DNA from: a virus
DNA: 64,000 nt
Direction: 5' to 3' (one strand)
Virus record (IMG/VR): IMGVR_UViG_3300046170_000478
Coordinates: 30,028 to 94,027 of that record
Position 1 is the first letter of the stretch; each line of letters starts with the position of its first letter. Both the position numbers and the translations under genes were made by a program. The notes under the pieces are model-generated. The model was not told the DNA's origin, searched no databases, and saw only the letters and a list, made by a program, of their open reading frames with translations. Positions 7,574 through 51,394 of this stretch are shown piece after piece.

Positions 7574-8713
7574 ATGAAAATCACAATTAAAAGAACTGAA
7601 GATCAGTTAGCTCTTATTAGAGCAATGGGATCTAATAATCGTGAAGAGGCTTATGAGGCTCAGGCGGCAGTTGCAGAACTGCTCGGACCTGTTGTATCTG
7701 AAGTTATTAACAACGCTCCTACTATTGGAAATCTCTATACGACGATTTCTTATGGAGAAGATGATAATCCTTCTCTTCCTTTGGACCTTTTCCACGACAT
7801 CACTGACGAGGACTACATTGAAGTGTATTCTCAGCAGGTCGCTGGTGGGCTTCCATACAGTCAAGTCTTCCCCGCTCACAATGAGTTGAAGTTTAGCACT
7901 TACACCTTGGACAGTGCTCTTGCGTTTGATCGCAAGTACGTCCGTAAGGCTCGCCTCGATGTTGTAAGCAAGACTTTCACTCGGATGGCTCAAGAAGTTC
8001 TGCTCAAGCAAACGACTACCGCTTTCAACGTTCTCGCTACCGCTTTGGTAAAAGGAACTGGAACTGGAACAACCGCTGGAGGAAGCATCATTGGTTCTTC
8101 TGCGGCTGACCGTTTTGTCCTTGCAGACTTTAATAACCTGATTACCAAGAGCAAGCGTATCAATAGCTCCTTCAGTGGAGGAACTCCTGTTGGTGGCGTT
8201 AAATCTGGTATTTCTGATCTCCTTGTTTCTCCAGAAATGGTCGAGGAGCTTCGGGCAATGGCTTATAACCCAATCAACACCGCTGAAGCCCCTTACGGAT
8301 CTGCAGTTAAGGACAGTCTTCCTGCTCCTGATGCTCTTCGTCAAGAACTCTTCAGTGCTGCTGGTCTTCCTTCTTTCTACGGAATTAATGTTATGGAGAT
8401 CAACGAGATGGGCATCGGACAACGCTTCAATAAGCTCTTTGGTGCTGTTGTTGCTTCCGAAGGTGCTACTGTTATCGGTGGTGGAGGATCTGGAACTTGG
8501 GTAACTGGTGATGATGAAATTCTCATCGGTATCGACCGTTCTAAGGATGCTCTTATCCGTCCTACCGTTGTTGGTGAGGGATCACCATCTGAATTCCAAG
8601 TCCTTGTTGACGATCAGTTCTCTGTTCGTCAGAACAAGATTGGATACTACGGTAAAGTTGAAGAGGGTCGTATTTGCATCGACAATACAGCTCTTATCGG
8701 CTTGGTGGTATAA
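7574..8713 (+). CDS. major capsid protein
   Basis: 379 aa in the canonical position, followed by a strong terminator. DLLVSPE and QNKIGYYGKVEEG are consistent with the HK97 fold. Confidence 0.85.
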   Translation: MKITIKRTEDQLALIRAMGSNNREEAYEAQAAVAELLGPVVSEVINNAPTIGNLYTTISYGEDDNPSLPLDLFHDITDEDYIEVYSQQVAGGLPYSQVFPAHNELKFSTYTLDSALAFDRKYVRKARLDVVSKTFTRMAQEVLLKQTTTAFNVLATALVKGTGTGTTAGGSIIGSSAADRFVLADFNNLITKSKRINSSFSGGTPVGGVKSGISDLLVSPEMVEELRAMAYNPINTAEAPYGSAVKDSLPAPDALRQELFSAAGLPSFYGINVMEINEMGIGQRFNKLFGAVVASEGATVIGGGGSGTWVTGDDEILIGIDRSKDALIRPTVVGEGSPSEFQVLVDDQFSVRQNKIGYYGKVEEGRICIDNTALIGLVV

Positions 8714-8737
8714 TCAACCTGATGTTACTTATAAAGA

Positions 8738-8770
8738 GAGTCGCTCCATAAGGGGCGGCTCTTTTTTTTT
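8738..8770 (+). terminator. intrinsic terminator after capsid gene
   Basis: GAGTCGCTCC-ATAA-GGGGCGGCTC hairpin (with G:U pairs) followed by T9. Confidence 0.85.
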
Positions 8771-8797
8771 GATTTTTATCTAAATTTTAACTATTAT
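8769..8797 (+). promoter_or_regulatory. sigma70-type promoter, leaderless
   Basis: TTGATT-N17-TATTAT, ending 5 nt before ATG 8803. Confidence 0.6.
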
Positions 8798-8802
8798 GTA
8801 TT

Positions 8803-9225
8803 ATGAGTGAGAAAAAACCAGCAAAGAAAATGAAAGCTTCAAAGGGAATTGAAAAGAAACACTTAGAGGAGTTTGATGTCACTGATGGTAAGCACAGGAG
8901 TTCCAAGGAGGAACAGATTGAACATGTAAAAGAACTAGAGGATCTATTGGGTATGCCTCAAATGAATCCTTATGGGACACTACATCGAGACGTTTTCAGG
9001 CAACGTCTAGATTCTTGCAATGCTTCTGAATTAACTGATTTAGCAGCTAGAGTTGGCATCCCGAGAGAGAGAAACATGAACCTGCTGAGAAAATCTTTGA
9101 TGAAATCTTTTGATTTTTATGTACAGAAACACAATGTAACAGTTCAGGGTTCATCTAAACCAATTTTAGATCCAAGTTCCCCAGACTACGAATCTACTGT
9201 AAGGTTATTTAAAGAAGGTTTTTAA
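8803..9225 (+). CDS. hypothetical protein
   Basis: 140-aa ORF with its own promoter. No recognised motif. Confidence 0.6.
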   Translation: MSEKKPAKKMKASKGIEKKHLEEFDVTDGKHRSSKEEQIEHVKELEDLLGMPQMNPYGTLHRDVFRQRLDSCNASELTDLAARVGIPRERNMNLLRKSLMKSFDFYVQKHNVTVQGSSKPILDPSSPDYESTVRLFKEGF

Positions 9226-9228
9226 TTA

Positions 9229-9717
9229 ATGAATGATCTTGGAGTTTTAGCTACTGACATTGTCACATATGATTTCCCTAATGATACGGGGTCATATAAT
9301 GTTGGATTTGTTTCTGGGTGGCTGGAAACTAATATTGGAGAGTTTAATGGGCTTATACATGAAGAATTTTCAGTAGACTCTACTGGAGCGATCTTGATGG
9401 ATAATACAGGTCTAGCTGAAGTAGAAAAGAATATTTTTTCTAAATTGTATGAGATCTGGTATTACCAAAAATCAGCAAGAGAATCTCTAAGATCATTTAC
9501 TTATTCTGATTCTGTAGATTGGGTGACCATTAAAGAAGGTGACACGACAATCCAGAGACAGAATAAAAACTCTGTAGCCAAAACGTATAAGGATTTAGGA
9601 GAACAAGCTCAAGAAGCTCTTGATGGACTCCTTTTCCAGTATAACTATCAAAAATCTTCCCCTGTTCAAGTTGCAGGGACAGATGGAACTTTTAACTTGT
9701 CTGGTCAATTAGTTTAA
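9229..9717 (+). CDS. head-tail adaptor (putative)
   Basis: Position after the capsid gene. Helical N-terminus plus the TIKEGDTTIQR hairpin typical of adaptors. Confidence 0.5.
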   Translation: MNDLGVLATDIVTYDFPNDTGSYNVGFVSGWLETNIGEFNGLIHEEFSVDSTGAILMDNTGLAEVEKNIFSKLYEIWYYQKSARESLRSFTYSDSVDWVTIKEGDTTIQRQNKNSVAKTYKDLGEQAQEALDGLLFQYNYQKSSPVQVAGTDGTFNLSGQLV

Positions 9718-9718
9718 T

Positions 9719-10165
9719 ATGCCCTCCTTACTCACAGACGCTGAAAAATCCGCTATTAATTCTGCTTTAAGTAGCATTCATGATACATTTGCTAGAAACA
9801 TCTTTATCTACGTCAAGGAGGCTTCTGTGGTCCCAGCTGAGCTTAATTTTAACCCTTTGTATGGCAGAAATAAAAACGCAGCCAAAATCTCTTCTGAGAT
9901 AACTCTGACCAAGTACACGTTCCCTGCTCGCATTTATTATAAAAACGAACAAAAAGAAGATATACTAGATGGGAACGGACAAATGAATCTTGTAGGATCA
10001 GAAGGCCAAATTAGAGTCAAAATAAAAGCTGACGCATACGAAAAACTTAAGATTTGTTCAAAGATAGAAGTTGATGATCAACTCTTTGTAATTGATGGAG
10101 ATGCAAAAATCATCGGACCATTTGATACCCAATTTTACTCGATCTTTTTGAAACGTGAAAACTAA
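9719..10165 (+). CDS. head closure/stopper protein (putative)
   Basis: Position and size. Beta-rich C-terminus KIEVDDQLFVI...YSIFLKR. Confidence 0.5.
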   Translation: MPSLLTDAEKSAINSALSSIHDTFARNIFIYVKEASVVPAELNFNPLYGRNKNAAKISSEITLTKYTFPARIYYKNEQKEDILDGNGQMNLVGSEGQIRVKIKADAYEKLKICSKIEVDDQLFVIDGDAKIIGPFDTQFYSIFLKREN

Positions 10166-10807
10166 TGGCAAAAAAGAATTTCATGAGGGTTTCAAAGCCC
10201 GTGGTGACTATAGACGCCAAAGAACTACTAAGAGAGCTTACCGCAGATAGCCCGAATAGTAAATCTATGGCGATGGCTATTCGGCAGGTTATCGCTCCAA
10301 AAATAGAGGATAGGCAGAAAGACCTACAAAAAGAATTTAAAGTACACCCAATCACAGTTGAATTAGATGCTGGTCCGACTGCGTCTAATACTAGTGGAAG
10401 CTTGGGAGGATACGGTAACCTTTTTTCTTTTATAGGTTTCTCAGGAGGAGATAACCCAACGGAAATTATATCTGAGATTTTCAGACAAAAGATTAGGTTT
10501 ACGGTACGGAGAAGAAATAACAAAGGGCAATACAATGTTACTTTTTTATATACCCTCTACAGATGACATATATAATTTGACTCCGATCCCTTGGATGACA
10601 GGAAAGAGTTGGGCGAAAAGCGTTGAAGAGGGAGGTATAACAAACTTAGGGCAGTTTCTATACAGCTCTACTGGTTTTGGGCAATCTTCTTCTGGTACGG
10701 GTATACAGGTCAAAAATAGATCTTCTGGTGTAAAGTTTACTAGGACTCCGTATATCGGGCAGTTAATAGAGAATTTTAAAAAGAATTTGTTAAGGTTAGA
10801 TAGATGA
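10165..10807 (+). CDS. neck/tail-completion protein, split by a 1-nt frameshift at T6 run 10542-10547
   Basis: ORFs 10165..10566 and 10535..10807 join into one frame (...YNVTFYIPSTDD...) if one T is removed. Confidence 0.55.
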
Positions 10808-11688
10808 AAGCACAATTTGATCAGAATATTTTATCCAGTTTTTACCTATGGTTTGAAAATCGCTTGTTGAGCGATTCTGCTAAGGCTTATAAAATAGATT
10901 TAGATAATGCTTTTGTATCAGGATCTTTTTCTGATATACCGTCAACTCATATAGGATTTCAAGGCAAGTACCGATCTCTTGTAGGCGAATATGGCGTTGA
11001 TAATCCAAACTCAGGTTTTTTCTTAGGGAATGATTTCATTACAGGCGATTATGACGAAAATGGAGGTATTTTTACAGATTACGAAAATGGTAGACTTATT
11101 TTCCCGCAAGCGTCTGGTGCAGAGATAGCAAGCAATGCTTTGACGGCAAATTCTACAGTAAAAGAAGTAAATACCTATATCACAAATGATACTGATGCTC
11201 AAATCATCATTCATTCTGATTTTAAAGATAGCGCTACAGAGTTGCCTTATCAGTATGGTAAAACGGGAGAGTTTGATGAGACCACTTACTTTTTGCCAGC
11301 ATGTTTCATATCTGTAGCTTCTTCAGATAACAAGGAGTTTTCTTTCGGCGGAGAGGAAGACACTACTACTAGAATCAGAGTTATGGTATTATCCTTTGAT
11401 AATTATACTCTAGATTCTGTTCTGTCTTTATTCAGAGACTCTGTCAGAAAAGACATGACTCATGTCCCATATGAAGATTTCCCATACGGTTTCTCTTTTT
11501 CAATTAAAGATTTCCCTTATAATTATAATAATTTAATCTCAGGACAATCAGACCCTGTGAAGTCTCATATCAAGGATGTTTCAGTCTCAAAAATTGTGTC
11601 AGAAAGAATTAGGGAGAATTTAAATAAGAACATTTCAATTGGATATATCGATTTTGAATTATGTACTTATCGTTTCCCCAGAGCTTAA
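10804..11688 (+). CDS. tail terminator/neck protein (putative)
   Basis: Directly upstream of the tail tube. LPACFIS...FSFGG...RIRVMVLS...GYIDFEL pattern. Confidence 0.5.
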   Translation: MKAQFDQNILSSFYLWFENRLLSDSAKAYKIDLDNAFVSGSFSDIPSTHIGFQGKYRSLVGEYGVDNPNSGFFLGNDFITGDYDENGGIFTDYENGRLIFPQASGAEIASNALTANSTVKEVNTYITNDTDAQIIIHSDFKDSATELPYQYGKTGEFDETTYFLPACFISVASSDNKEFSFGGEEDTTTRIRVMVLSFDNYTLDSVLSLFRDSVRKDMTHVPYEDFPYGFSFSIKDFPYNYNNLISGQSDPVKSHIKDVSVSKIVSERIRENLNKNISIGYIDFELCTYRFPRA

Positions 11689-11692
11689 ATTG

Positions 11693-11708
11693 GTGTAAGA
11701 AGGTGTAA
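11693..11708 (+). promoter_or_regulatory. tandem GTGTAA late-promoter elements (tail tube)
   Basis: GTGTAA at 11693 and at 11703, 10 bp apart. Confidence 0.55.
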
Positions 11709-11735
11709 ACCTTTACATTTTTAACTTAAAATCTT

Positions 11736-13019
11736 ATGGCTTCTAGAACTAGAATAATTTCACAAAGCAAGGCTGTTTATGTATCCCCTACTGGTACACT
11801 CGGTGGGCTTACCACCCCTGAAAAGGCAGTTACTGGGGTTATGCCTCAACAATTACACCGTGTAGATACTTTATCTTTTGATGTTGATATCGCTGGAGGG
11901 CGACAGGACATTAGAGAGTTTGGTCAATTGGCACGAATCGGAACAATCACTTTGGGTGATCTAAACCCATCTTTTTCTCTGGGTTATTACCTTGGAAATG
12001 GAGAAAACGAGGGTAATTTGGGATTCAATGGTCTTGGTAGAAGCGCTGTAGATGGTTCTTTGCAAGATCAATTTATTTCTGGGATTCTTGCTGAAGATCC
12101 CGCTAAAAGAGAAAAGAATCTTTTCATATTGACTGTTAAAGAGGGTGAGGATGCTTTTGCATCTACGAGTTCATTTAACGATAACCCAACTGGGAGATTT
12201 ACCACTGCTGAAAGAGCGGGCCATGATGTTGTTTCTCTCGGAAACTGCAACTTTGAAAGTTATACTGTTAACTTTGCTGTTGGAGAGATCCCTAGGGTAG
12301 ATATTGATGGAACCGCAGAAAACATTACTTTTGATACTACCAGTTCTGGCCTTTATAACCCATCTTTGAACAAGGCGGGAGGACGAGCTGACACAGGACA
12401 ATTCATGTTAGGAACTCCTAGTACAGGTAATATGGACGTTCTTGTTCTTCGTCCAGAAGACGTAAGTTTAGCCTTCTCAAAAGAAGAATTCTCATTTGGT
12501 GGAACAGATCTTGGAGATATGCATGTGCAAAGCGCCTCAATTGAAGTCCCTCTTTCTAGGACTCCCATTGAAGCTCTAGGATCAGCTAAAGCTGTTGCTA
12601 AACCTTTGGATTTCCCAATCAATGTAACTATGTCAGTTAGTGCGTTGCTAAAGAATATCCACTCAGGTCAAATCGACAAAATCTTGACTGGAAATGCTGG
12701 AAACGAAACCACGAACATCACCCTTACTGTTAAGGGCGATGATGGAAAAACCAAGCATCAATACACTATGCAGAAGGCAGTGATGGATTCACAAGGATTC
12801 TCCCAAGGCTTAGATGATAACGAATCAATTGAATTGACATTCTCCACTCAGATTGGAGGAATAAATCAAACTGATCAGGGATTGTTCTACTCTGGTGTTA
12901 ATGCAAGTCAACCTGATGTATATAGTAGTACTGCTACTCAGAAATTTGGAGATGGATTCATGTATAAAAAGAACAATGCGATATCACCATACTCCTTGGA
13001 AGACGGAGCTGGGTCTTAA
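11736..13019 (+). CDS. major tail tube protein
   Basis: Own promoter and terminator. Two tube-like halves: RQDIREFGQ and SRTPIEALGS. Confidence 0.7.
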   Translation: MASRTRIISQSKAVYVSPTGTLGGLTTPEKAVTGVMPQQLHRVDTLSFDVDIAGGRQDIREFGQLARIGTITLGDLNPSFSLGYYLGNGENEGNLGFNGLGRSAVDGSLQDQFISGILAEDPAKREKNLFILTVKEGEDAFASTSSFNDNPTGRFTTAERAGHDVVSLGNCNFESYTVNFAVGEIPRVDIDGTAENITFDTTSSGLYNPSLNKAGGRADTGQFMLGTPSTGNMDVLVLRPEDVSLAFSKEEFSFGGTDLGDMHVQSASIEVPLSRTPIEALGSAKAVAKPLDFPINVTMSVSALLKNIHSGQIDKILTGNAGNETTNITLTVKGDDGKTKHQYTMQKAVMDSQGFSQGLDDNESIELTFSTQIGGINQTDQGLFYSGVNASQPDVYSSTATQKFGDGFMYKKNNAISPYSLEDGAGS

Positions 13020-13037
13020 TATAACTATTATATCTAG

Positions 13038-13068
13038 AAAAAGCCTCGCAGGAATGCGGGGCTTTTTT
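13038..13068 (+). terminator. intrinsic terminator after tail tube gene
   Basis: AAAAAGCCTCGCA-GGAA-TGCGGGGCTTTTTT. Confidence 0.85.
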
Positions 13069-13074
13069 GTGTAA
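13069..13074 (+). promoter_or_regulatory. GTGTAA late-promoter element
   Basis: 8 nt before ATG 13083, immediately after the terminator. Confidence 0.6.
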
Positions 13075-13082
13075 ACTACTAT

Positions 13083-13928
13083 ATGCCAGATAGGATTCAT
13101 GCTAGTGATGTTCAGCTTTTTGTAGATGATCAGCGGATTCCTTCTGTAACCTCTCTATCTATTTCATCTCCTAAGAGTGTTGTTGATATCCAAAGATTAG
13201 GAGCTTCCCACTCTGTAGACAGAATATTAACCTCTAACCAATCTACCACATTAACCTATGACGTTAATTTAACAACTGGAGCTACTGGAATTGACCCTAT
13301 TTACAGCTACCAAAATATGAAGTCAGGTTTTTTGTCTACTGGCTTTTTTGAATTTAAAGCAAAGGACTCTGTTGGTGTGACCACTATTTCTGGAGCATCT
13401 TTAACATCTTATTCTATTAATGGATCTGTGGGGGATATTGTTAAGGGATCTTCTTCTTACGAGGGAGATGGAGCTATTTTTACTGACGCTGGAGCTTTAA
13501 CAAGTGAATCTAACGATATATTTGACGGTTTCTTTAGACCTGAAGATATCGAGATCTCCACATCTTCTAACGGCGACGAAGGAATAGATTCTACTAGTTT
13601 GAATATACAAGATTTTTCTATATCAGTTTCTCTTCAAAAGACTCCTGTAACTAGGTTGGGTACTAGAGTCCCTCAATACAGATATCCTCAGATGCCAGCT
13701 CAGGGAAATCTTAATTTCAATGTTTTAAAGACAGATGTTACTGGAATTAATATTTCCAGTCTAGTTTGCGAAAGCGGGGTGATTACTATCGACTTAAAAG
13801 GTAGAGACAATGAATCTATTTTAGATTTTACTACAAGTGGCTGTTGTTTAGAATCTGTTGAGGAATCGACTTCTCTAGACGATAATACTTCTGTAAGCTT
13901 CTCTTACTATTTCCCAATAATAAAATGA
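13083..13928 (+). CDS. minor tail tube paralogue
   Basis: Aligns by eye to 11736..13019: VVDIQRLG vs RQDIREFG, and IQDFSISVSLQKTPVTRLG vs VQSASIEVPLSRTPIEALG. Confidence 0.6.
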   Translation: MPDRIHASDVQLFVDDQRIPSVTSLSISSPKSVVDIQRLGASHSVDRILTSNQSTTLTYDVNLTTGATGIDPIYSYQNMKSGFLSTGFFEFKAKDSVGVTTISGASLTSYSINGSVGDIVKGSSSYEGDGAIFTDAGALTSESNDIFDGFFRPEDIEISTSSNGDEGIDSTSLNIQDFSISVSLQKTPVTRLGTRVPQYRYPQMPAQGNLNFNVLKTDVTGINISSLVCESGVITIDLKGRDNESILDFTTSGCCLESVEESTSLDDNTSVSFSYYFPIIK

Positions 13929-14326
13929 TTACTAGCGGAAACCTACCAAATTATAAAAATTGTATCTACAATGTAGATGTAACGATTGATTCTCCCATCA
14001 GTGGTTTTGAGTTTTCCATTATGGAGACAGGGATAGACGGAGGTTTTAAAACAGCTAACTTAATGACGTTTTCTGGAGCGGAAGGTTATATATTTGACCA
14101 AAGTGGCAACTTTTTTGGAGGGTATAGAAGTGGCGTCCCCTTTGACCTTGAAATACATCATGATTTTTTAAACTCCACATTTTCTTATTACAAAGATAAT
14201 ATTTTAATAGCTAATGGATTAGATGTGACGGGAGATAGTATTTTGAATGGAAGGCCAAATCTAGTTATGTTCACTAAACATGGGGAATCGGTACTTTCTT
14301 TAGAGGCCACAGGTTGTATAAGTTGA
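13925..14326 (+). CDS. small beta-rich virion protein (putative)
   Basis: ATGA overlap with the previous gene. About 8 [ST]G dipeptides in 133 aa. Confidence 0.45.
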   Translation: MITSGNLPNYKNCIYNVDVTIDSPISGFEFSIMETGIDGGFKTANLMTFSGAEGYIFDQSGNFFGGYRSGVPFDLEIHHDFLNSTFSYYKDNILIANGLDVTGDSILNGRPNLVMFTKHGESVLSLEATGCIS

Positions 14327-14350
14327 TTTTTTTCTGTATATTTATATAAT
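14323..14350 (+). promoter_or_regulatory. sigma70-type promoter, leaderless
   Basis: TTGATT-N16-TATAAT, ending 7 nt before ATG 14358. Confidence 0.6.
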
Positions 14351-14357
14351 AATATAC

Positions 14358-15170
14358 ATGAAAGAGCTATACTCGTTTGATGTAAAGAGAACCATTGAGA
14401 AAGAGGTTCCTCATGTCAAAAAAACTAAAAATGGTCCAGTTGAAACTACTAAAAAAGTAAAAAACACCATTAAGAATAGAATTGTTTTTCGGAAGCCATC
14501 TATTCTAGACCTTGAAGACGCCGAGTTCTTCTACGGGCAGAAATACAACGAATATATTAACGCTGGATTTTTAACTAAAGCTATGCTGTCTAAGAAACTT
14601 GGAGACATGGGTGGGCTTACTTCTAAAACGTCCCAAGAAGCCATGAACCAGATTATCATTGATAATATGGAATCCTCAAGAACGATTGAATTTTTTGCTG
14701 GTGCAAAAGATTTGTCTGAAGAGCAAGAAGAGCAGTTAGAAGAAGCTAAAAAACTGTTTACGCACACTAAAGTTCAACTACATGAATACGAAACTTCTCT
14801 AAGGTCTCAATTCAGTCAAACTGCAGACTCAAAAGCTGAGATTAAGGTTATTGAGTGGCTGGTGTTGAATTTCTCTTATTTTGAAGATAGTGTAAGTGAC
14901 AAGAAAGATTTGTTTGAGATTTTTGAAGGAGATGAATTTGAGCAAAAGCGCATGTTCTTGATTAGACTACAAGAAGCTGAAGACGAAGACATTGAAGACG
15001 CTACATTCTTAAGAGCCAAAAAGATTTACGACGAGTGTTTTGAGAAGCTTATTAGGGTTGCTAGCATTTGGTATAATAAAATGGGCAATGATCAGAAATC
15101 AATTGATGAAGCTCTAAAAGACCTGTTTGAACCTGAAGCAGAAGCTTTAGATGAACAACAAGGAGAATAA
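14358..15170 (+). CDS. tail assembly chaperone (putative)
   Basis: Charged helical protein between the tube and tape measure genes. Confidence 0.45.
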   Translation: MKELYSFDVKRTIEKEVPHVKKTKNGPVETTKKVKNTIKNRIVFRKPSILDLEDAEFFYGQKYNEYINAGFLTKAMLSKKLGDMGGLTSKTSQEAMNQIIIDNMESSRTIEFFAGAKDLSEEQEEQLEEAKKLFTHTKVQLHEYETSLRSQFSQTADSKAEIKVIEWLVLNFSYFEDSVSDKKDLFEIFEGDEFEQKRMFLIRLQEAEDEDIEDATFLRAKKIYDECFEKLIRVASIWYNKMGNDQKSIDEALKDLFEPEAEALDEQQGE

Positions 15171-16020
15171 ATATTCTATTGACTTATTAGACATAGTTCG
15201 TGGATACAGTGTTTTAACAAGTTCTGATAGTCAATGCTATTTTAAGCACTTTACGGTGCTTGAACTTCTTGAATTAGATAACCTTCAAGAAATTGATATT
15301 AGTCGATCTATAAAATCAGGCATTAAGACCGAGAAAGACCTAGTTGAGACTGCTATTAAAAGAAAGTCTTGGTCAGTGCAGAAAGAGGACAAAATAAAGT
15401 CCTTAGAGTGGACTATAAAAAAATCACTTACAGCTTTCGGCAAGATTGAAGATCCCAAACAAAAGGAAATATTCAAGAGGCAGATAGATAGCCAAGAAGA
15501 CGAACTCAAAGAAATCAGGGTTAAAAGAGCCAATATAACTTCTTATAGTGCGGAGCACTTATCTGAAGTGAAAAGAGTTAAGAGGATGTTTAAACAGTCT
15601 ATTTTTATGGATTTAGATTTTACAGAATCTCCAACCCAAGATCAAGAGCTTGTTTTTACTACAGCGATGTTCTCTAGGTATGGGGAACTCAATAATCGAG
15701 AATCAATATTAAAAGCATCTTATTTTGGTGGGTTTTTTGATTTATTCTCTGCTCAAGATGGAAATCCTTTAACTCTCTTGGGCAAGACATTTGAGGATAT
15801 AACAAATTTCCAAAAGTATCTAATTGTAGTCTCTAATGGGTTATTAAATAAGATTAAAAATACAAGAATACCCGAAGAAATTTATGGAGACCCAGTAAGA
15901 ATGATGAATTACGAGGAGAAAGAAGAGAAGGATACAAAGGTTTCTCATGGTCTAGATGATCTAAGACGTAAATCTCAAGTAAGAGGGGGAGAACTTAAAG
16001 CAGAGGACTTTTTAAGCTGA
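15151..16020 (+). CDS. second tail assembly chaperone (putative)
   Basis: Immediately upstream of the tape measure. Helical and charged. Confidence 0.4.
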   Translation: MNNKENKYSIDLLDIVRGYSVLTSSDSQCYFKHFTVLELLELDNLQEIDISRSIKSGIKTEKDLVETAIKRKSWSVQKEDKIKSLEWTIKKSLTAFGKIEDPKQKEIFKRQIDSQEDELKEIRVKRANITSYSAEHLSEVKRVKRMFKQSIFMDLDFTESPTQDQELVFTTAMFSRYGELNNRESILKASYFGGFFDLFSAQDGNPLTLLGKTFEDITNFQKYLIVVSNGLLNKIKNTRIPEEIYGDPVRMMNYEEKEEKDTKVSHGLDDLRRKSQVRGGELKAEDFLS

Positions 16021-16039: not shown

Positions 16040-19000
16040 ATGGCTACCAGTCTAAATGCATCCCTAAATGTCTCTCTAAACCCGCAGAGCCTGAATGCTT
16101 CTACGAAGCAGGTTCAACAAGCTTTAGGGAGAATCACGGGACAAGCTTCGGAGTTCCAGAAATCTCTGGATGCTTCCACTGCTCGTGTCTTTGCATTTGG
16201 AGCTACTACCGCCGTTCTAAACGGAGTAACTCAATCTTTTAAAAAATTAGTTTCTTCAACTATTGAAGTAGAAAAACGATTAATTGAAATAAACTCTATT
16301 TTTCAAGCTACTGACGCGACATTTAATAAATTTAGGAATTCAATATTTAAGGTTGCAAAAGAAACTGGCCAATCATTTGCGACCGTTGCAGATGGTGCTG
16401 CTGAATTAGCTAGACAAGGTCTAAGCGCAGAAGAGACCGCTAAAAGACTAAAAGCGTCTTTAGTCCTAACGAGAATCTCTGGATTAGATGCAGAGAAATC
16501 TGTCAAAGCCCTCACTGCTGCGATTAACGGTTTCGCATCCGCTGGATTAAACGCAAATCAAATCGTCAATAAACTGGTTGCTGTTGACACGGCTTTCGCT
16601 GTATCTGCTCAGGATTTGGCAGAGGCATTTAGTCGTGCTGGATCTACAGCGGAGGATGCTGGGGTTAGTTTTGATCAGCTTTTGGGGCTTGTCACAGCTG
16701 TAGAACAAAAGACCGCTAGGGGAGGAGCAGTTATTGGTAACGCATTTAAATCTATTTTTACTAGAATATCTAGGGGCAGTACAATTGATAAACTTAAAGA
16801 GTTGGGGGTTGAAATTGATGCGACTCAAACAGGAATTCAAAAACTCAATGCTTTATCTGTAGCTTTGCAGAATGTCTCCGATCCAACTGTAGCTTCTCAA
16901 ATCAAAGAACTCGCAGGTGGCGTCTTTCAAATTAACGTTGTTAGTGCTGCTTTAAAAGACTTGGGTTCTGATACTTCTATATTTGCCAGTGCAGCGAGAA
17001 CAGCCTCTCAAGCCACAAATGAAGCTTTTGAAAAAAATGCAGAGTTAAGTAAATCAATATCATCTCAAATAAATGTACTTGTTCAGGGTTTAACTAGTCT
17101 TTCTGAAAAGATAGGGACAATTACTTTTGGGCCTCTTCTAAAAAACCTAATTGGTTTAGCTAATAAGTTTACGGAGTTTTTGGATAATGCTCTTGATCCA
17201 GAGAAGGGTAATACGTTTATTAAAGGATTATTTAAAGCCATAGGTAGTTTCTTGAGTGGCCCCGCTGTAGTCATCTTTACAGCAGCTTTTGTTAAGATTT
17301 TCAAATTAGTCGCTAGGTTCGCTGGAGACGGATTAAAATCCTTGTTCGCGATTGGAACCCAGACAGAGAGGATTAAAAATATTGAAGGAGGGATCGTCGG
17401 TTTGCTGCAAAAGGATGAAAGCCTTAGGAATGCAATTACAAGCTCGACAATAACTCAAGCTCAAAAGGAACAATTAGTTTTAAATGCTATAAGGAGCGAA
17501 AATAAACTTTTGGAGCGACAAGCCCAGTTAGTGAGGCAAATTGCGACCTCTGCTGCCGCAAAAGGTGTGACTGGGTTTAGTGCTACTTCTGGGACTTTTA
17601 AGGGTCGGCGGGGCAAGCGTTATGCTTCTGGATTCATGGAGGAAGAGGCTACCGCTAGAATGCTTGGCGCTCCTGATAATGTGCAAGCTCATTTCGGTAA
17701 GGGAACTATTGGTGGACGTAGATTTGTCATGAATGACAATGAGGTAGAGATACCTAATTTTGCAGGAGGAAATTCTGCTGTTATCCCCATGTATGCTGGA
17801 GGAAATCTACCCAAATATAACAGGGGGTTTTTATCTCCACTCAAAAATAGGACAGATATAACAACTAGGCAACAAGCTATAGATGCTGGATATAGTGGAG
17901 CTGCTGCCAGTAGTAGATTCGGAGCAGCCCCGAAGGTTGCGCCTACTCAAAAAATGGAGGATGTAATTCAAGTTAATCCTACTGGATCAGCTATGCTTGT
18001 TCCGAATATAGGTAAAACTTCTAGAATAAATAAGGGGACTAGAGGTAGATTTAAATTCAAGGGCAAGAACATGGGGTTTGAATACGGGGCGGGATTGGGT
18101 GTTTATGGACCCAAGGTTCCAGAAACTGTTGATGGAGCAGCCAACCCTCAAGACGAAAGACTGAGGAAGAATATAACAAGAGGGGTTACTACAAGTGCAG
18201 CAAACTATGCTGGATCGTTAAATCCTATTCTAGGTAAGCCTAAACCATCTCAAATTAGCAAAATGCTACAAAGACAGGGTGGTGGTAAAGGAGCACTCAG
18301 AGGAGTTGTTGGCGCGGCATTTGAAGCTGCTGTTAATGTTGGATTAGGAATAAGTCCAGCCCGAAAGGTAGATGGTGGAGATTTTGATATTAAGGGGGTT
18401 AGTGGAGAGAAACGCAAAGATGTTAACACCATGTTTGGAGTTAAAAACCAAGCAACAAACCTGTATGATTATAAGGAGAATGCTGGAAAGAATAGTTATT
18501 CTAGTTTTGCTAAAAAATTAGCTAACCAAGGGAGATACACTACTGTTAAGAGGCCCAAGTTTTCTAAGAAAGGTTTTGCTGGAGGATATATGCCTAAGTT
18601 TGCTAAAGGGGCTACTGGTGGAGGCGGTGGAGGCGGCGGATTGATGATCGGTCTTTTCGCACTACAAGGAGTTTTAGGAGGTGTTACATCAAGTTACGAA
18701 CAGAATAAAAGTGCTGTAGAGGCAGATACTGAAGAAAAAATACAAGCTCTGAAACAGTCTAAAAAGAGCTATAAAGAAATAAGCTCTGGGATAAAAGCGC
18801 TTAAAGAAGAGGGTAAAGCTAGGGGAGAAGCCAAGACTGCTATGGAGGTTCTAGCAGAAAAAGCTATGTTGGCGGCGAACGCATTAATAACTTTAAGCAC
18901 CTTGAATATGGTTACTGGAGGAGGGTTAGGTAAGGCTGGAAGTTTTTTGATGGGTAAAGGTGGAAAAGCCGCAAAGTTGACTCAAGCTCAGAATAAGGCT

Positions 19001-20902
19001 AGACACGCTAAAGAACTGAAACAATTTAGAAAAAACAAGGCATCAGGTATGAATCCTGCAGATGCTCAAAAAGCAGCTAGATCTACCGTAGCCAAGAGGG
19101 GAATGATGGGAACTGCTGCCAAACGACTGGGCGTGGTTGGATCGATAGGTTTCGGGGGTTATGAAGCTGGGTCAGCTTTCTTTGATGATAGCCTAGAGCA
19201 AGAGCAGAAAGATGAAAGATATAAAAGTGCTGCTGGCTCTACAACAGGAGCTTTGGTAGGTGGATTGGTTGGTTCTATACTTGGCCCAATAGGTACAATT
19301 GTCGGATCGGCTGCTGGAGGATATTTAGGTGGTAAACTGGGAGACTCTGAAGGAGCAGATAGTGCTGTAGCGACTAGGCGAGAAGAGTCTTTCAAAGAAG
19401 CTCAGACTTTTGGGATGTTAGATTTTAATGCATCTGATTTTCAAGAAGCTATTGAGGAAAATCTAGACGCGATTACCGCTCAAGATGGCTTTGAAGCGGC
19501 AGCAAATCTTCAAAAAGCTTATGATGATGCTTTGGCAGCAAAAGCCCAATTACTAGATGAAGCTAAAAAAGGAGAAGTTTCAGAAAAAGATAGGGTCGCT
19601 ATTCAAGAACGACTAGATCAAGCTTCCATGAGGCTTGCTGGGGTTAGATTCAAATCTGCTGCAGATGAAAGTGCAAATATAAAAGCTATAGCTCAAACAG
19701 AAAGAAAAATAGTTGCGTCAAGTGATGCTCTAGCTAAGGCTAGAAAAGAATTAGCTGATAAAACCCTAGATATGGCTGCTAGGGTTAAGAGAGAACAATC
19801 TCAGGGTAAACTAAGGACTCAATTATCTCAATCTGTTTCTGGACCGTTTGCTGGAGCTGTAGGATTAGCTTCTGAACAAAACCTAATGTTTAGAGATATT
19901 AATGTAGCTAAGAATGAAAAAGTAAATGCTGAAGCTGCTCTAAGGGCAGGTCAGAAGATTGGAGTTTCAGGAGAGGAGTTACAAGATCTTAAAGATGCTG
20001 TAAGCTCCGCTGGAGAAAACTTTGAATCAACTGTCAATAACGCTGCAGTTTCATTCAAGAATAAAATGGTAGCCCTTGAAAAGGGTATTGCAGATATAGA
20101 TAAGCAAAAGGCGAAACTAAGAGAAAAGGAAGTTCAAGCCTCAGAAAACTTTATTCAAAAAGTTGTGGCAGGAAATAAAGGAGGAGGGTCATTGAATTTC
20201 CTGATGGACTCTATGACTAATCTTAAAGCTTTTACAAAAGATATCCAAGCTAGAAAATCCGCCGTAGAAAAACAAGGGGGGACTTTTGAAATGACAAGAG
20301 AAGAAGTCCGTAAATTAGCTCAAATGCAAGCCGCTGTTGAGCAAGGTGGAGAGAACGCAGGTCTCTCTCAAAACTTCTCTGAACTAATTAAAAAACTAGC
20401 GCCTGAACTTTCTAAAATATTTTCTGGAGAGGGGGCAATGGGGGCGAAAGCTAGAGCTAGAGCCATGTTCGGGGACGAAGAGTCTAGAGCTGAATTTGAG
20501 AGAAGATATGGGAAAGGAGCTATTGACAAAATTCTTGCTGGAGAAGGGATGTCAGAGAAAAAAGCGATAGATGAATTGACTAAAACTCAAGAAGATTTAA
20601 GAGCGCAACTAGAGATAACTAGGAAAAATTATGAAAAGCTTAATACAGATGCTGATACTGCAGCCCTAGCTGCGAATATAACAAACCTAGCTACAGAAAT
20701 GGAAATGGCTGCTCGTGGCTTATTTGAACTTAATGATTTCTCCGCTAGAATTACAAAAACAGTAACAGATACAAGTGGATTGATAACCACAAATGCAGCT
20801 TTCGTTGAAACTCAGAAAGGTTTAATATCTGCTCTAACTTTAGAGTTAGCCAATCTGAAAATTAAAGTTGATGACCTTTCTGCAGATTCAGATCTTAAAT
20901 AA
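16040..20902 (+). CDS. tail tape measure protein (TP901-type core)
   Basis: 1620 aa, Ala/Gly-rich. ELARQG, DLAEAFSRAGSTA, GVSFDQLLGL and GAVIGNAFKSIFTR are classic tape-measure core motifs. Glycine-zipper hydrophobic segments. Confidence 0.9.
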   Translation: MATSLNASLNVSLNPQSLNASTKQVQQALGRITGQASEFQKSLDASTARVFAFGATTAVLNGVTQSFKKLVSSTIEVEKRLIEINSIFQATDATFNKFRNSIFKVAKETGQSFATVADGAAELARQGLSAEETAKRLKASLVLTRISGLDAEKSVKALTAAINGFASAGLNANQIVNKLVAVDTAFAVSAQDLAEAFSRAGSTAEDAGVSFDQLLGLVTAVEQKTARGGAVIGNAFKSIFTRISRGSTIDKLKELGVEIDATQTGIQKLNALSVALQNVSDPTVASQIKELAGGVFQINVVSAALKDLGSDTSIFASAARTASQATNEAFEKNAELSKSISSQINVLVQGLTSLSEKIGTITFGPLLKNLIGLANKFTEFLDNALDPEKGNTFIKGLFKAIGSFLSGPAVVIFTAAFVKIFKLVARFAGDGLKSLFAIGTQTERIKNIEGGIVGLLQKDESLRNAITSSTITQAQKEQLVLNAIRSENKLLERQAQLVRQIATSAAAKGVTGFSATSGTFKGRRGKRYASGFMEEEATARMLGAPDNVQAHFGKGTIGGRRFVMNDNEVEIPNFAGGNSAVIPMYAGGNLPKYNRGFLSPLKNRTDITTRQQAIDAGYSGAAASSRFGAAPKVAPTQKMEDVIQVNPTGSAMLVPNIGKTSRINKGTRGRFKFKGKNMGFEYGAGLGVYGPKVPETVDGAANPQDERLRKNITRGVTTSAANYAGSLNPILGKPKPSQISKMLQRQGGGKGALRGVVGAAFEAAVNVGLGISPARKVDGGDFDIKGVSGEKRKDVNTMFGVKNQATNLYDYKENAGKNSYSSFAKKLANQGRYTTVKRPKFSKKGFAGGYMPKFAKGATGGGGGGGGLMIGLFALQGVLGGVTSSYEQNKSAVEADTEEKIQALKQSKKSYKEISSGIKALKEEGKARGEAKTAMEVLAEKAMLAANALITLSTLNMVTGGGLGKAGSFLMGKGGKAAKLTQAQNKARHAKELKQFRKNKASGMNPADAQKAARSTVAKRGMMGTAAKRLGVVGSIGFGGYEAGSAFFDDSLEQEQKDERYKSAAGSTTGALVGGLVGSILGPIGTIVGSAAGGYLGGKLGDSEGADSAVATRREESFKEAQTFGMLDFNASDFQEAIEENLDAITAQDGFEAAANLQKAYDDALAAKAQLLDEAKKGEVSEKDRVAIQERLDQASMRLAGVRFKSAADESANIKAIAQTERKIVASSDALAKARKELADKTLDMAARVKREQSQGKLRTQLSQSVSGPFAGAVGLASEQNLMFRDINVAKNEKVNAEAALRAGQKIGVSGEELQDLKDAVSSAGENFESTVNNAAVSFKNKMVALEKGIADIDKQKAKLREKEVQASENFIQKVVAGNKGGGSLNFLMDSMTNLKAFTKDIQARKSAVEKQGGTFEMTREEVRKLAQMQAAVEQGGENAGLSQNFSELIKKLAPELSKIFSGEGAMGAKARARAMFGDEESRAEFERRYGKGAIDKILAGEGMSEKKAIDELTKTQEDLRAQLEITRKNYEKLNTDADTAALAANITNLATEMEMAARGLFELNDFSARITKTVTDTSGLITTNAAFVETQKGLISALTLELANLKIKVDDLSADSDLK

Positions 20903-20919: not shown

Positions 20920-22467
20920 ATGGCTAGCTTAATAGTAACAAATGTTTTAACTTCTTCGGTTCAGATAGAATATTCTTATCTGAACACTGAGGAGCTATTT
21001 GGCTATAAGGTTGTTGGATCTTATCAGATTGACGTTTCTGATATTAATATTGAACAAGAAGACACTACTTTAGTTAAAGGCAGGGACGCTATTGAAAGCG
21101 CCTACAATAGACCAAACATTACAGCAAGAATCGGAGCTGATGATTATATAAATGGTCAAATAACTTCATATAGTTTTGATGCGGGGACTCTAGTAGGATC
21201 TGAAGTTGTATCTATTACAATAGAAGAGTATAGAAGATTAGATGATTATTCTTCTTCTGAGTTTGCAAAATACATTCCAAACCCTCATGCAATATCTAGT
21301 TTTTCTGAGTCTTATGATTTCTCTAGAAATGGCTCTGATTACAGCTCAAGTAGAAAGATATCCTTAACATATATTCAAGATGCGGGAGATCAATTTCTCA
21401 ATAATGCCAAGACCTTTTTAACTAATTATTATTTCGGTAATAGACCTGACTTTGGTTATCAAGAAGATGGAATATCTGAAAACGCTAAAATTAGCGATAA
21501 TTTTCGGGGATTGATCAGTGAGACTTATGATCTTATTGGGCTAAGCGTTTCTTTAGAGGAGAATGTGAATTCTTCAATAGTTGATGATGCTAATAAGGTC
21601 AGTAAGAAAGAGACTCAAAACTTGAGTATTGATGAAAGAGGTTACTTAAACAAAACTATAAATATAGATCTTACTTCTCTTAGATTAGATTCTGAAAATG
21701 TTATCAATGCAGCTATAGCAAATATTATTGACGCGAAGAAGGCTGAAGAACAAGTTGAATTTGGCAACCCACATTCTATATCTAAAGCAGTCTCTACAGA
21801 CGGAAATAAAGCAACTATCTCCCTTTCTTTTTCAACAGATCCCAAAAAATCTCAAGAGAATGTGATATCATATTCTGGAACCGAGAGTAAAGATGGAAGA
21901 TTTATAAGTTATTCATTATCTATAGAATACGTATCGGATGGAAAGAACAATATAGATAAATTTAAAAATACTAGGGCTTCTTGGGGAAACGAGCAGCCTC
22001 TATATCCATTAAAAATTCGTAGATTATTTCATCCTACATTTCAATTTTTTGAAAAGAGTAGGTCAACAAACTTCTTAAAAACCGAGGGAAAGATTACTGA
22101 GAGTGTAGTATTCACTAGTGATGATGCATATCAATCATCTGACGATGGATTACTTAAATTTAAAAAAACTTTAAATAAAGCAAATCAAATTAATAGATTG
22201 GAGAAATTTTTAAATTTAGAAGATTTAACAGATCAGATTGTACAGAGTAATCTAAAAACTGTCGGACAAGCGAGCGTGTCAGCTGAAGCTACAGTTAGTC
22301 AAAGTGCAGGAATACTCAAAGCCAAAGAAATTTTACAATCAAAAACTGCGGAATTAAATGAATTGGTTGATGAGGATGTTATTCATATTACCTCGGATAC
22401 AACAAGTCTAAACCTAGGGGACGGGAAAGCTACTAGAAACTTAACTTATTTATTTATTGAAGAGTAA
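20920..22467 (+). CDS. tail tip/distal tail protein (putative)
   Basis: Follows the tape measure. Ser/Thr-rich beta repeats. Confidence 0.5.
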   Translation: MASLIVTNVLTSSVQIEYSYLNTEELFGYKVVGSYQIDVSDINIEQEDTTLVKGRDAIESAYNRPNITARIGADDYINGQITSYSFDAGTLVGSEVVSITIEEYRRLDDYSSSEFAKYIPNPHAISSFSESYDFSRNGSDYSSSRKISLTYIQDAGDQFLNNAKTFLTNYYFGNRPDFGYQEDGISENAKISDNFRGLISETYDLIGLSVSLEENVNSSIVDDANKVSKKETQNLSIDERGYLNKTINIDLTSLRLDSENVINAAIANIIDAKKAEEQVEFGNPHSISKAVSTDGNKATISLSFSTDPKKSQENVISYSGTESKDGRFISYSLSIEYVSDGKNNIDKFKNTRASWGNEQPLYPLKIRRLFHPTFQFFEKSRSTNFLKTEGKITESVVFTSDDAYQSSDDGLLKFKKTLNKANQINRLEKFLNLEDLTDQIVQSNLKTVGQASVSAEATVSQSAGILKAKEILQSKTAELNELVDEDVIHITSDTTSLNLGDGKATRNLTYLFIEE

Positions 22468-24071
22468 TGTCTGAACAAATTACATATGGAACTTATACTT
22501 TCCCAACTCCTGTCCCTTTCGTTGGACAAGGGGTTGAGCCTGTTTACCTTGGAGGCAAGGCTGACCACTTTAGAAATACGGTTGAACTCGTAGGCAACTT
22601 AACTGGAGAAAATTTAAGTGGTTTACACTTGCAGAAGATGCAAATGGTTAGTGGTTTAATGTCAACATTTGAAACTCTTACCGTTTCTCATGACGCAGGT
22701 AATAAGACTTTTACACAAGCAAAGCCTGAGACGATTTCTTTTTCTGATTCTGACTTGAGTACTGTCTTGCCATATTCTGTATCTTTTAGCTGTTATAAAT
22801 CGGAAGACTTTTCTGAATTTTTTGGAATAACTAATCCTACCGATACTTGGTCTTTTAATGAACAAGATGGTCGTATTGTAGAAGCAAGCCACAATGTTTC
22901 AGCACAAGGTTTAAAAGTTGATGCGACCTCTCCACTGGTAAATGCTAGACACTTTGTGACTGGTAGGACAACAGGTTATCGTGATTTAAGTCTATTTTTG
23001 ACTGGAGCGACAGGCTATTTGATGTCTAGAACAGAGAATATAGACAGGAGCCAGAATACCTACGGGTTGCAAGAAACTTATCGTTATAACTCAAGCGAGT
23101 ATATGAAGACTGGTTTATCTGGAGTTTTTTCATCAGACTGTTCTATATCTTACGAGAAAGAAGCTGGCTTAAGCGTGAATGTTAATGCTAGTATTCAAGG
23201 GGACTTTGATTCCATTAGAAACTCCGAGGGTCTTGTGACTACAGGACTATTTACAGCGTCTCAAGCTCAAGAAATTGCAGTTAACGCCATCGCGTCTTCC
23301 CTCTCTGATTATGAAAGCGGAATCTATACCTTTATGGATAGAGGTCCGAAAACAGTATCTTATGATATAGATACTGGAACTAATGTTATTAACTTTTCCT
23401 ATGTATTCTCTGACCCTGAAAATACAGACCAAGTCGGCAATGTTTCGCACAAGAGAAGTTCTTCTGTAAACGCCAGCAAAGATGATTCAAAAGTTAAAGT
23501 TTCAATTCAGGGAGAATTTAAATATAATTCTCCTTTTGAAGTTATCCCTACTGGAGACCCAGCTACTGGGCAAAGGTTTATTGAAATAGATGAGCAATAT
23601 AGTGGGATAGCTACTGGGTCTGGGTTTTTAAATTTAGCTATTGAGGCTTTGCAAGACTTTACGGGTTATGCAACTGGATACTATATAAGTGGAGACTATA
23701 TTAATCCTGAGCCTCTTAGTAGGTCCATTTCTAAAAATCCATCTGATAGTATCATTAATTACTCATTAGAATTTGATAATAGGCCAGATCTTTCTAATGG
23801 AACCCTGACAGGTTTGAAAGTTACTTTAACTGATAAGCAACCATTGGAGCGAAGTGGAATAGTTCCAAGTTTAGGGGGGTTTGCAAAACAAAAAATAAAT
23901 AACCGTAGTGCAGGAGAGTTTTCTGCGTCTGCTGTTTGTGAAGCCTCAACAGGACAGTTGCAAGAACTAAAAGATGTTGTGAGTGGATATATGACAGGAG
24001 TATATATATTTTCTGAGTCAAGTAGTTTAAATGACAATTCTATTTCTTATAATGTAAGTAGGTACTATTAA
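22467..24071 (+). CDS. tail tip protein (putative), [ST]G-rich
   Basis: TAATG coupling to the previous gene. Similar repeat style to it. About 25 [ST]G dipeptides. Confidence 0.5.
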   Translation: MSEQITYGTYTFPTPVPFVGQGVEPVYLGGKADHFRNTVELVGNLTGENLSGLHLQKMQMVSGLMSTFETLTVSHDAGNKTFTQAKPETISFSDSDLSTVLPYSVSFSCYKSEDFSEFFGITNPTDTWSFNEQDGRIVEASHNVSAQGLKVDATSPLVNARHFVTGRTTGYRDLSLFLTGATGYLMSRTENIDRSQNTYGLQETYRYNSSEYMKTGLSGVFSSDCSISYEKEAGLSVNVNASIQGDFDSIRNSEGLVTTGLFTASQAQEIAVNAIASSLSDYESGIYTFMDRGPKTVSYDIDTGTNVINFSYVFSDPENTDQVGNVSHKRSSSVNASKDDSKVKVSIQGEFKYNSPFEVIPTGDPATGQRFIEIDEQYSGIATGSGFLNLAIEALQDFTGYATGYYISGDYINPEPLSRSISKNPSDSIINYSLEFDNRPDLSNGTLTGLKVTLTDKQPLERSGIVPSLGGFAKQKINNRSAGEFSASAVCEASTGQLQELKDVVSGYMTGVYIFSESSSLNDNSISYNVSRYY

Positions 24072-24072
24072 T

Positions 24073-25461
24073 ATGAGCGAAAAAGGTTTAAATTACTCTT
24101 TAACAGAATCATTGGGAAATAATAATGACTTACTTGTCTTTTATAATTTTTCTGGGCTTAGTGGTAGGCATATCGGAATTGATAATAGAGCAGGAACCAA
24201 ATATTCTGTTATAGAAAATTGCGAGCCAGTAAATGATACAGGAATATATAGCGGGGTTGTAGTTGGGTTGGGTTCTACCACAGATGCAGGAACTAAAGAG
24301 CTAACTACAGGAACATTTTTAATCAATGATAAAGCAGACTTGTCTGAATCAAACTTGCAAATTACAGGTACCGAGACATTGCCTTATTCCAATTGCTCTG
24401 TGATCATGGACTTTGAATTTAATGGGGAAGTGAATGATTGCGTATTATTTGGTTCTCTTGAGAAGAGTTCAACAACCATCAATGATCAAGTTATAACGGG
24501 AGCAAAAGGATTCAATTTTGGCATAACAGATAGAGGAAAGCTTTTTTACCAAGGTTTTGGCAAAGACGGGGATTTCATATATACTTCTAGTGATTTAGAA
24601 TTATCTAAAAGAAACATAATTAGTTTTTCCCTTGGATTTAATCAAGTCACCATGTGCAAATATGACTTCTTCAATCAACAAATTGATAAGGATGATTTCA
24701 ATGTTGACACATCTTATATTGCTAATAATGAAGATTTTTACATCGGGGGTTCTAATCAATATTTTAGAGGGACGAACGGAGAATTTAAGACTTCTAATGT
24801 AAGCCTAAATTCCTTCGCTTTACTATCGGGTTATATTTCTCCTAATACTATATTTGGTCTGGGTAGTGGAATGATAGGAAATTACTTCACCTCTTCTGAA
24901 TCAGCTACAACGGAGACTAGAATTACAGGATATCATCAAACCACAGTTTATGAAACGGGTATAACTGGGTACGACTATGAGGATACTGGAAGTATTAACC
25001 TGTCTACGGGAAGAGGAATGCTTACAGGAAACTTCTCTTTTGATTCAAATACTAATACGGGAGAGGGCGATAGATATTTTGTTTATAGATTTTTTGATGT
25101 AAACCAAGTAACTGGGTTTGTAAAAGAAGAGGTCGGGTTTCTACATCCAGATTCTGGTTATCAATACTTGCCGACTGGAGACACTTCTGCATTTGATACC
25201 TTGGGATTACAAGATGTCGAGGGAGCAGTAGCAGAGTATATAGAACAAAGGGGTATATCTGGAGCGGCTGCTATTTCTGTTCAGCTATTTGGATCTAGAA
25301 TACAAACAGGAGTCTTAGATAAAATAAGTGGAGTTATTCAAGAGCCTATGTACGAGACTGTGATAGATAATCCCAAGTCTGATAATTCAGGTATTAGGAT
25401 GGACGTAAGTGGAGAGTATTTGAAGAAAGATTACATTTATTATTTAGGAGATAGGATATGA
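24073..25461 (+). CDS. virion protein with LamG/concanavalin-like domain, [ST]G-rich
   Basis: LLVFYNF, GFNFGI and FYIGG motifs. About 24 [ST]G dipeptides. Confidence 0.5.
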   Translation: MSEKGLNYSLTESLGNNNDLLVFYNFSGLSGRHIGIDNRAGTKYSVIENCEPVNDTGIYSGVVVGLGSTTDAGTKELTTGTFLINDKADLSESNLQITGTETLPYSNCSVIMDFEFNGEVNDCVLFGSLEKSSTTINDQVITGAKGFNFGITDRGKLFYQGFGKDGDFIYTSSDLELSKRNIISFSLGFNQVTMCKYDFFNQQIDKDDFNVDTSYIANNEDFYIGGSNQYFRGTNGEFKTSNVSLNSFALLSGYISPNTIFGLGSGMIGNYFTSSESATTETRITGYHQTTVYETGITGYDYEDTGSINLSTGRGMLTGNFSFDSNTNTGEGDRYFVYRFFDVNQVTGFVKEEVGFLHPDSGYQYLPTGDTSAFDTLGLQDVEGAVAEYIEQRGISGAAAISVQLFGSRIQTGVLDKISGVIQEPMYETVIDNPKSDNSGIRMDVSGEYLKKDYIYYLGDRI

Positions 25462-46256: not shown

Positions 46257-46486
46257 GCTACCTTGAAGAAGACCCTGCAAATAATATCCCTCAATCTTTA
46301 CTAGATAAGATTTATGACTCTACTGGATCTGTAAATGGCGGGAATAGGGGGTTTATGTTAATTTACGTCAATAAAGACGGATGCCCAACAGTTACTACTA
46401 AAACAGAAAATCCTTGTGTAGACATGGCTCTTAGCAAGTTGATAGAGATAGCCATGACAAAAAAAGACGACGATATTTCCATATGA
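46253..46486 (+). CDS. hypothetical protein
   Basis: ATGA-coupled on both sides. Confidence 0.6.
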   Translation: MSYLEEDPANNIPQSLLDKIYDSTGSVNGGNRGFMLIYVNKDGCPTVTTKTENPCVDMALSKLIEIAMTKKDDDISI

Positions 46487-50793: not shown

Positions 50794-51394
50794 CCAAAAA
50801 TATCTAGTCTTTGATACAGAAACCGAAGGTTTAAATTTACATTCCTCCAAACCTTGGCAGTTATCTTGGATAATTTGTCAGGGAAACAAGGTTTTAGAAG
50901 AGCATGATGAATTCATCTCTCATAAAGAGCTTAACATCCCAAGTGCTGTAAAAGAAATGACAGGGTTCAACTGGGATCATTATAATAAAAAATCCAGATC
51001 TCTTTCAGAGGTTTGGTCTAAATTTGAAAGCTACTTATTTGACCCGCAATATATTGTGGTCGGGCAAAACTTACTTGGCTTTGATGTCTATATGGTAGCT
51101 CTCTTGCAGAGGATGTTAAGTCAAGAGCCTGATTACTCTTATTTACCTAGAATCTATGATACCAGAGCTTTAGGTAAAGCATATAGAGAGGAATTAGATA
51201 AGCCGAAGAGTGATATGTTGAGCTGGCAATACAAAATTATTAATGACCGAAGTCTTAAGGCGAAGGTCTCACAAAATCAGCTATTGAAATTTTTCGGTAT
51301 AGAGTTTGAGGAGGAAAAGCTCCATAATGCCATGTATGATATCAAGAAGTGTTATGAAATTTTCTTAAAATTAAAGAAACATATGAATTTATAA
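50780..51394 (+). CDS. DEDDh 3'-5' exonuclease (DnaQ/epsilon-like)
   Basis: VFDTETEG, GQNLLGFD, YDT and LHNAMYD. Confidence 0.88.
   Translation: MLPSNQKYLVFDTETEGLNLHSSKPWQLSWIICQGNKVLEEHDEFISHKELNIPSAVKEMTGFNWDHYNKKSRSLSEVWSKFESYLFDPQYIVVGQNLLGFDVYMVALLQRMLSQEPDYSYLPRIYDTRALGKAYREELDKPKSDMLSWQYKIINDRSLKAKVSQNQLLKFFGIEFEEEKLHNAMYDIKKCYEIFLKLKKHMNL

Follow-up and report, generated by a model that had tools for sequence, protein, structure and literature searches.

The tape measure protein (TMP) encoded in the 64-kb stretch of phage DNA analyzed here (the window, i.e., the 3′ part of the linear 94,027-bp IMG/VR virus record IMGVR_UViG_3300046170_000478, with completeness estimated at approximately 70%) holds a two-part insert, composed of a small β-rich module (M) and a basic, confidently foldable and conserved domain (D) that is found only in TMPs. 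The protein (P0001, 1620 aa) is the product of one open reading frame (ORF) located at positions 16040–20902 on the plus strand, as are all TMP features described below. D constitutes a genuine new family of domains embedded in TMPs and has a probable functional site, and we tentatively assign a probability of about 0.35 to the reading that this site is metal- and DNA-directed and nuclease-like. As far as the searches reported below indicate, both M and D represent new families, absent from Pfam, PHROGs, PDB, BFVD, and the cultured phages. The original prediction for this DNA, made from its letters and ORF translations, proposed a nuclease-like cargo domain released at [FY]AxG processing motifs. 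The observation behind it (the motifs, the basic folded domain, and the conserved residues) was confirmed and its interpretation as a whole is partly supported.

Domain D and Its Conserved Site

D spans aa 639–845 (17954–18574) and follows a low-confidence, variable linker (aa 597–638, 17828–17953). It was modeled twice with AlphaFold2: inside a longer model the predicted local distance difference test (pLDDT) score exceeded 90 (aa 639–839), and D alone gave a mean pLDDT of 89.1 and a predicted template modeling (pTM) score of 0.79. The predicted order of elements comprises six short strands and three helices followed by a strand–helix–strand–helix–strand succession. With 36 K+R and 15 D+E residues, D has a net charge of +21 and a pI of 10.25; the segment between the motif clusters is indeed basic and predicted to be globular, as had been proposed. 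Its homologues were basic in 140 of 144 distinct sequences, with a median net charge of +19.

The strings noted as a putative active site are present at GAAFE (aa 758, position 18311), DFD (aa 781, 18380), and YDYK (aa 809, 18464), within a conserved core (aa 747–830, 18278–18529) that was found in at least 211 of the 247 retrieved proteins. In the alignment of 73 D sequences sharing less than 70% identity, G758 and D783 (codon start 18386) were invariant, F761 and E762 (18323) were conserved in 99% (the exception at 762 being D), and F799 in 96%. Position 810 (D810 here, 18467) was always acidic, K812 (18473) was retained in 100%, and K826 (18515) in 96% of sequences, the rest having Q. An iterated core profile, evaluated on 77 cores of less than 60% identity, gave a similar picture, with acidic residues in 100% at both [E/D]762 and [D/E]810, D783 in 97%, and K812 in 100%. 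Hence the residues proposed as catalytic are 97–100% conserved among the 73–77 non-redundant relatives. This E/D/D/K signature is retained down to approximately 27% identity, and the replacements at 762 and 810 are E/D swaps only. No His or Cys is conserved in D.

In the model, the third helix bears E762, and D783 opens a short strand; D810-x-K812 belongs to the strand after it, and K826 to the helix that comes next. The order of residues in the model is that of a PD-(D/E)XK site, and the sequence signature of this superfamily (an acid on an upstream helix, then D ... (D/E)xK) can be recognized in D. The secondary-structure order is compatible with PD-(D/E)XK if the poorly modeled loop at aa 770–782 corresponds to β1 and one helix is taken as an insertion. 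The GGGKGA string in D was also considered as a P-loop and rejected, as its K is not conserved.

Distribution of the Insert among Phages

A word-indexed search with aa 520–870 retrieved 157 long TMPs, for the greater part of marine metagenomic origin (Tara, JGI, ENA), with identities from 99% down to 27% and full coverage. The exhaustive phmmer search over 1.84 billion cluster representatives gave 174 matches, all of them TMPs or fragments cut by contig ends, which puts the insert in at least 174 clusters (50% identity). A profile search restricted to proteins of 59–560 aa revealed no free-standing annotated D and returned only three short entries, i.e., a 285-aa sequence 89% identical to D, the fragment P0231, and a marginal 153-aa match. 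Comparison of D with 50,697 phage records by tblastn gave no match, and with the whole TMP as the query only the N-terminal part (aa ~4–458) was matched in cultured phages; no cultured-phage TMP in this collection matched M or D. Judging from these searches, D appears to be confined to the TMPs of uncultured, mostly marine phages.

The TMPs first scored as lacking D mostly carry a divergent D core, e.g., G-x-I-F-D-x-A ... N-F-D ... D-x-K. In TMPs with M but no D match, or with long spacers between M and D, the Pfam scan showed only PF10145 and two matches below the cut-off and no other cargo; the swapping of cargo between the motifs, envisaged in the original prediction, was thus not found among the relatives. 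The 4611-aa metagenomic TMP P0172 contains two copies of D (a partial one at aa 912–1027 and a full one at aa 1052–1247) and two copies of M; therefore, these units duplicate within a TMP.

Candidate Functions of D

Several comparisons gave no link between D and known nucleases. Foldseek comparisons of both D-containing models with PDB gave no match below an E-value of 0.7, and comparison with BFVD gave none below 0.5. Pfam, searched at E-values up to 10, gave no match for D or for 11 of its homologues. Mrr, whose motif we take D to resemble, was likewise not recovered: no match to Mrr_cat (PF04471) was present in the 94-kb record at E-values up to 10. The hhalign probability was 0.1% for D against the single sequence of E. 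coli Mrr and 0.3% for the 157 D sequences against the Mrr family, the latter being a poor template with relatives 77–100% identical. Of the proposed PD-(D/E)XK active site, the residue order and conservation stand; the fold was not recovered by the fold searches, a result that does not count decisively against it.

Other comparisons were similarly unproductive. M, D, and the D core searched against Pfam and PHROGs at E-values up to 10 gave nothing except one PHROG of unknown function (E-value 0.052). PDB sequence profiles returned only coiled-coil matches for the whole TMP and a chance match to an Fe-hydrogenase (E-value 0.8) for D alone; the ESM Atlas gave no usable neighbor of D. In full-text literature searches that combined tape measure with nuclease terms, no paper describing a nuclease-type domain in a TMP came up.

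D may instead be a non-catalytic structural or interaction domain, in which the E/D/D/K residues would form a structural salt-bridge or metal-site network; we rank this second, almost level with the nuclease-like reading. During assembly or the formation of a channel, such a domain could bind, as a basic pad, the DNA end, the lumen of the tail tube, anionic lipids or lipopolysaccharide (LPS), or some other component of the tail or host. The failure of all searches to recover an enzyme family or fold fits this explanation, as do the strongly conserved positive charge and the strict occurrence of D inside TMPs. D is also positioned between hydrophobic stretch 1 (aa 396–429, 17225–17326) and stretch 2 (aa 864–885), the latter continuing a Gly8 run at aa 860–867 (together 18617–18694), and these flanking stretches suggest membrane insertion. 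On the other hand, a signature kept down to such low identity, with only E/D swaps at 762 and 810, is seen more often in active or metal sites than in binding surfaces.

Module M and the Flanking Motifs

The motifs on the N-terminal side of D, namely RYASG (aa 527, position 17618), PNFAGG (aa 572, 17753), PMYAGG (aa 583, 17786), and PKYNRG (aa 591, 17810), lie where they had been read, and all four belong to module M (aa 524–596, 17609–17827). The AlphaFold2 model of this unit of approximately 70 aa consists of one helix and four strands (pLDDT ~90). On the C-terminal side, GFAGG (aa 845, 18572) and PKFAKG (aa 852, 18593), which precede the Gly run starting at aa 860 (18617), form a pair (aa 845–857, 18572–18610) that represents the remnant of a second M-like unit. 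Since this second unit is complete in distant relatives, with the pattern G-F-I-P-N-F ... G-V-P-x-S-x-I-R-A-H-F-D, D is bracketed by M-type units, one before it and a remnant after it, and the claim of a domain enclosed by motif-bearing elements holds.

The motif [FY][AN]xG occurs eight times in the TMP versus 1.8 ± 1.3 expected (5000 shuffles; P ~0.0006), and four copies inside one 75-aa window have a shuffling probability of ~0.0002. Neither this clustering nor the E...D...DxK succession is due to chance, because both are conserved in distant relatives. Among 97 non-redundant copies of M, conservation of 96–100% was observed at E535, A539, G543, A544, G555, I557, G559, N565, E568, E570, G577, S579, P583, Y585, and G588. 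M retains 55–74% identity even in pairs of TMPs with D regions that can hardly be aligned, if at all, and some TMPs of 1600–4600 aa contain it two or three times. No other part of the central and C-terminal TMP is as conserved as M. Copies also occur in P0077, P0085, P0092, P0134, and P0172, the 2631-aa P0077 having them at aa 541, 1866, and 2467. M has the appearance of an independent functional unit and may serve in metal binding or docking.

The sequence comparisons thus present the [FY]AxG motifs as conserved parts of the M-type units flanking D, and they may mark domain boundaries. Whatever the function of D, the motifs could act as proteolytic sites that release it as a free effector. 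In favor of this idea, which is independent of the readings of D itself, the motifs are conserved and flank D on both sides. Moreover, the TMPs of T5 and lambda are cleaved during tail assembly, and the T5 cut separates a part with an enzymatic motif (PMC10038345). We nevertheless regard such processing as improbable, because the N-side motifs lie inside a folded module (PNFAGG and PMYAGG in predicted strands and the joining loops), not in a linker, and M recurs in longer TMPs where no D was detected alongside it. The literal FAGG/YAGG letters are also less conserved than their neighbors, position 575 being mostly G and 576 mostly N.

The motif type was also seen outside the insert. The cultured TP901-family TMP YomI of SPbeta (L009:5634-12491) has a single F-A-S-G-G near its C-terminus (aa 2143), downstream of its SLT and M23 domains; therefore, the [FY]AxGG type is not confined to the marine clade.

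Proposed Role in Infection

The least probable reading makes D a new-fold enzyme degrading peptidoglycan or polysaccharide of the cell envelope by carboxylate catalysts, as a functional counterpart of T5 pb2C, motif 3 of TM4, and the SLT/M23 domains of SPbeta YomI; although all enzymatic TMP cargo documented in the sources found is of this kind (PMC10038345, PMC1796659, and the YomI domains) and D has a helix Glu followed approximately 21 residues later by a strand Asp, Pfam and fold searches gave no SLT, M23, NlpC/P60, Rpf, or lysozyme match in the TMP or D (Pfam recovered SLT and M23 from YomI as the positive control), no His or Cys is conserved, and invariant lysines with a net charge of +21 are untypical of muramidases.

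A nuclease-like D ranks first among the readings of D, narrowly ahead of the non-catalytic one and well ahead of the envelope-degrading one. The M–D insert is specific to a large clade of TMPs from uncultured, mostly marine phages. Under the favored explanation, the functional site would be composed of the carboxylate of G758-x-x-F761-E762 on a helix rich in small residues, D783, D/E810-x-K812, and K/Q826, and it would be divalent-metal-dependent and DNA-directed, either of the PD-(D/E)XK type or a convergent mimic, able to nick, cut, or grip DNA. D would be carried unfolded or compacted within the tail tube, be ejected along with the TMP during infection, and regain its fold at the host envelope or inside it, beside the entering DNA. 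We infer the metal or DNA chemistry, the ejection, and the refolding. More doubtful is the fuller proposal, in which the TMP serves marine long-tailed phages of a widespread clade as a vehicle for a new, highly divergent nuclease-type domain flanked by M-type boundary or processing elements. This domain would reach the host together with the genome or slightly before it, and its target might be host DNA, or it might process the end of the phage DNA.

The Tape Measure Protein and Its Genomic Setting

Assignment of P0001 to the TP901-type TMPs is firm. The PF10145 (PhageMin_Tail) core at aa 105–293 (16352–16918) scored 88.2 bits versus the family cut-off of 33.2, the protein is very long, and its gene lies in a tail gene block. 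Eleven PHROG tape-measure families match within the first ~590 residues, and the homologues carry the JGI name TP901 family TMP. Downstream of D, hydrophobic stretch 3 (aa 1066–1105, 19235–19354, or more narrowly aa 1069–1094) is glycine-zipper-like, with a Pfam match below the family cut-off, and the acidic C-terminal region (aa 1121–1620, 19400–20899) gave profile matches to coiled-coil proteins only. The TMP forms a marked charge dipole: basic segments (pI 9.5–10.4 for all those measured within aa 1–1120) precede an acidic C-terminal stretch of 500 aa (pI 5.27).

At the DNA level, megablast of the TMP gene against the 50,697 phage records gave no relative. For the ten tail- or head-region ORFs around the TMP gene (7574–16020 and 20920–25461), no PHROG match was obtained at E-values up to 0.001, and the structural module of the lineage has practically no annotation. 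The record also encodes a T4-type large terminase. Its replication set is unusual for such a phage, the genes located at 37442–39085, 46483–48009, 51394–53955, and 53948–56290 comprising the large subunit of ribonucleotide reductase, a DnaB-like helicase, a DNA polymerase III alpha-type replicase (PF07733, PF17657, HHH_6), and a Clp-like ATPase with two AAA+ modules.

Comparison with Known Systems

TMPs with embedded functional domains are already known, and the M and D families are new. In the sources found, the known catalytic TMP domains are cell-wall hydrolases. If D acts on DNA, it would found a new class of effectors delivered by the virion and add a new, very divergent branch to the nuclease-like folds. 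Otherwise, D would still be a strongly constrained component, as yet without explanation, of the machinery with which abundant marine phages infect their hosts. The same lack of explanation applies to module M.

D resembles the PD-(D/E)XK nucleases Cfr10I, Bse634I, PspGI, and Mrr in having a helix E, a D at the start of a strand, and (D/E)xK in the strand that follows, all similarly spaced. A weak, long structural alignment to three enzymes of the CCGG family was also obtained. Among the TMPs, that of mycobacteriophage TM4 has a small conserved functional motif that aids infection (PMC1796659); this peptidoglycan-hydrolase motif differs from D in its chemistry and shares no sequence with it. 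Cleavage of the T5 protein pb2 (pb2* and pb2C) occurs after R1127; the C-terminal product, with a muralytic metallopeptidase motif, was proposed to be expelled into the periplasm (PMC10038345). Like P0001, pb2 is a long TMP with hydrophobic stretches and a part bearing an enzymatic motif. The T5 cargo is C-terminal and its metallopeptidase motif has shown muralytic activity, whereas D lies mid-protein, N-terminal to the second hydrophobic stretch, and has neither a peptidase motif nor sequence similarity to pb2. YomI of SPbeta shares the N-terminal PF10145 core (25% identity over aa 4–418) and also has globular enzyme domains embedded further along (SLT at aa 1425–1533 and M23 at aa 1579–1674), these being recognized cell-wall hydrolases, unlike D, which matches no family. 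By analogy with T5 pb2 and SPbeta YomI, the general concept of a delivery-type TMP has solid precedent.
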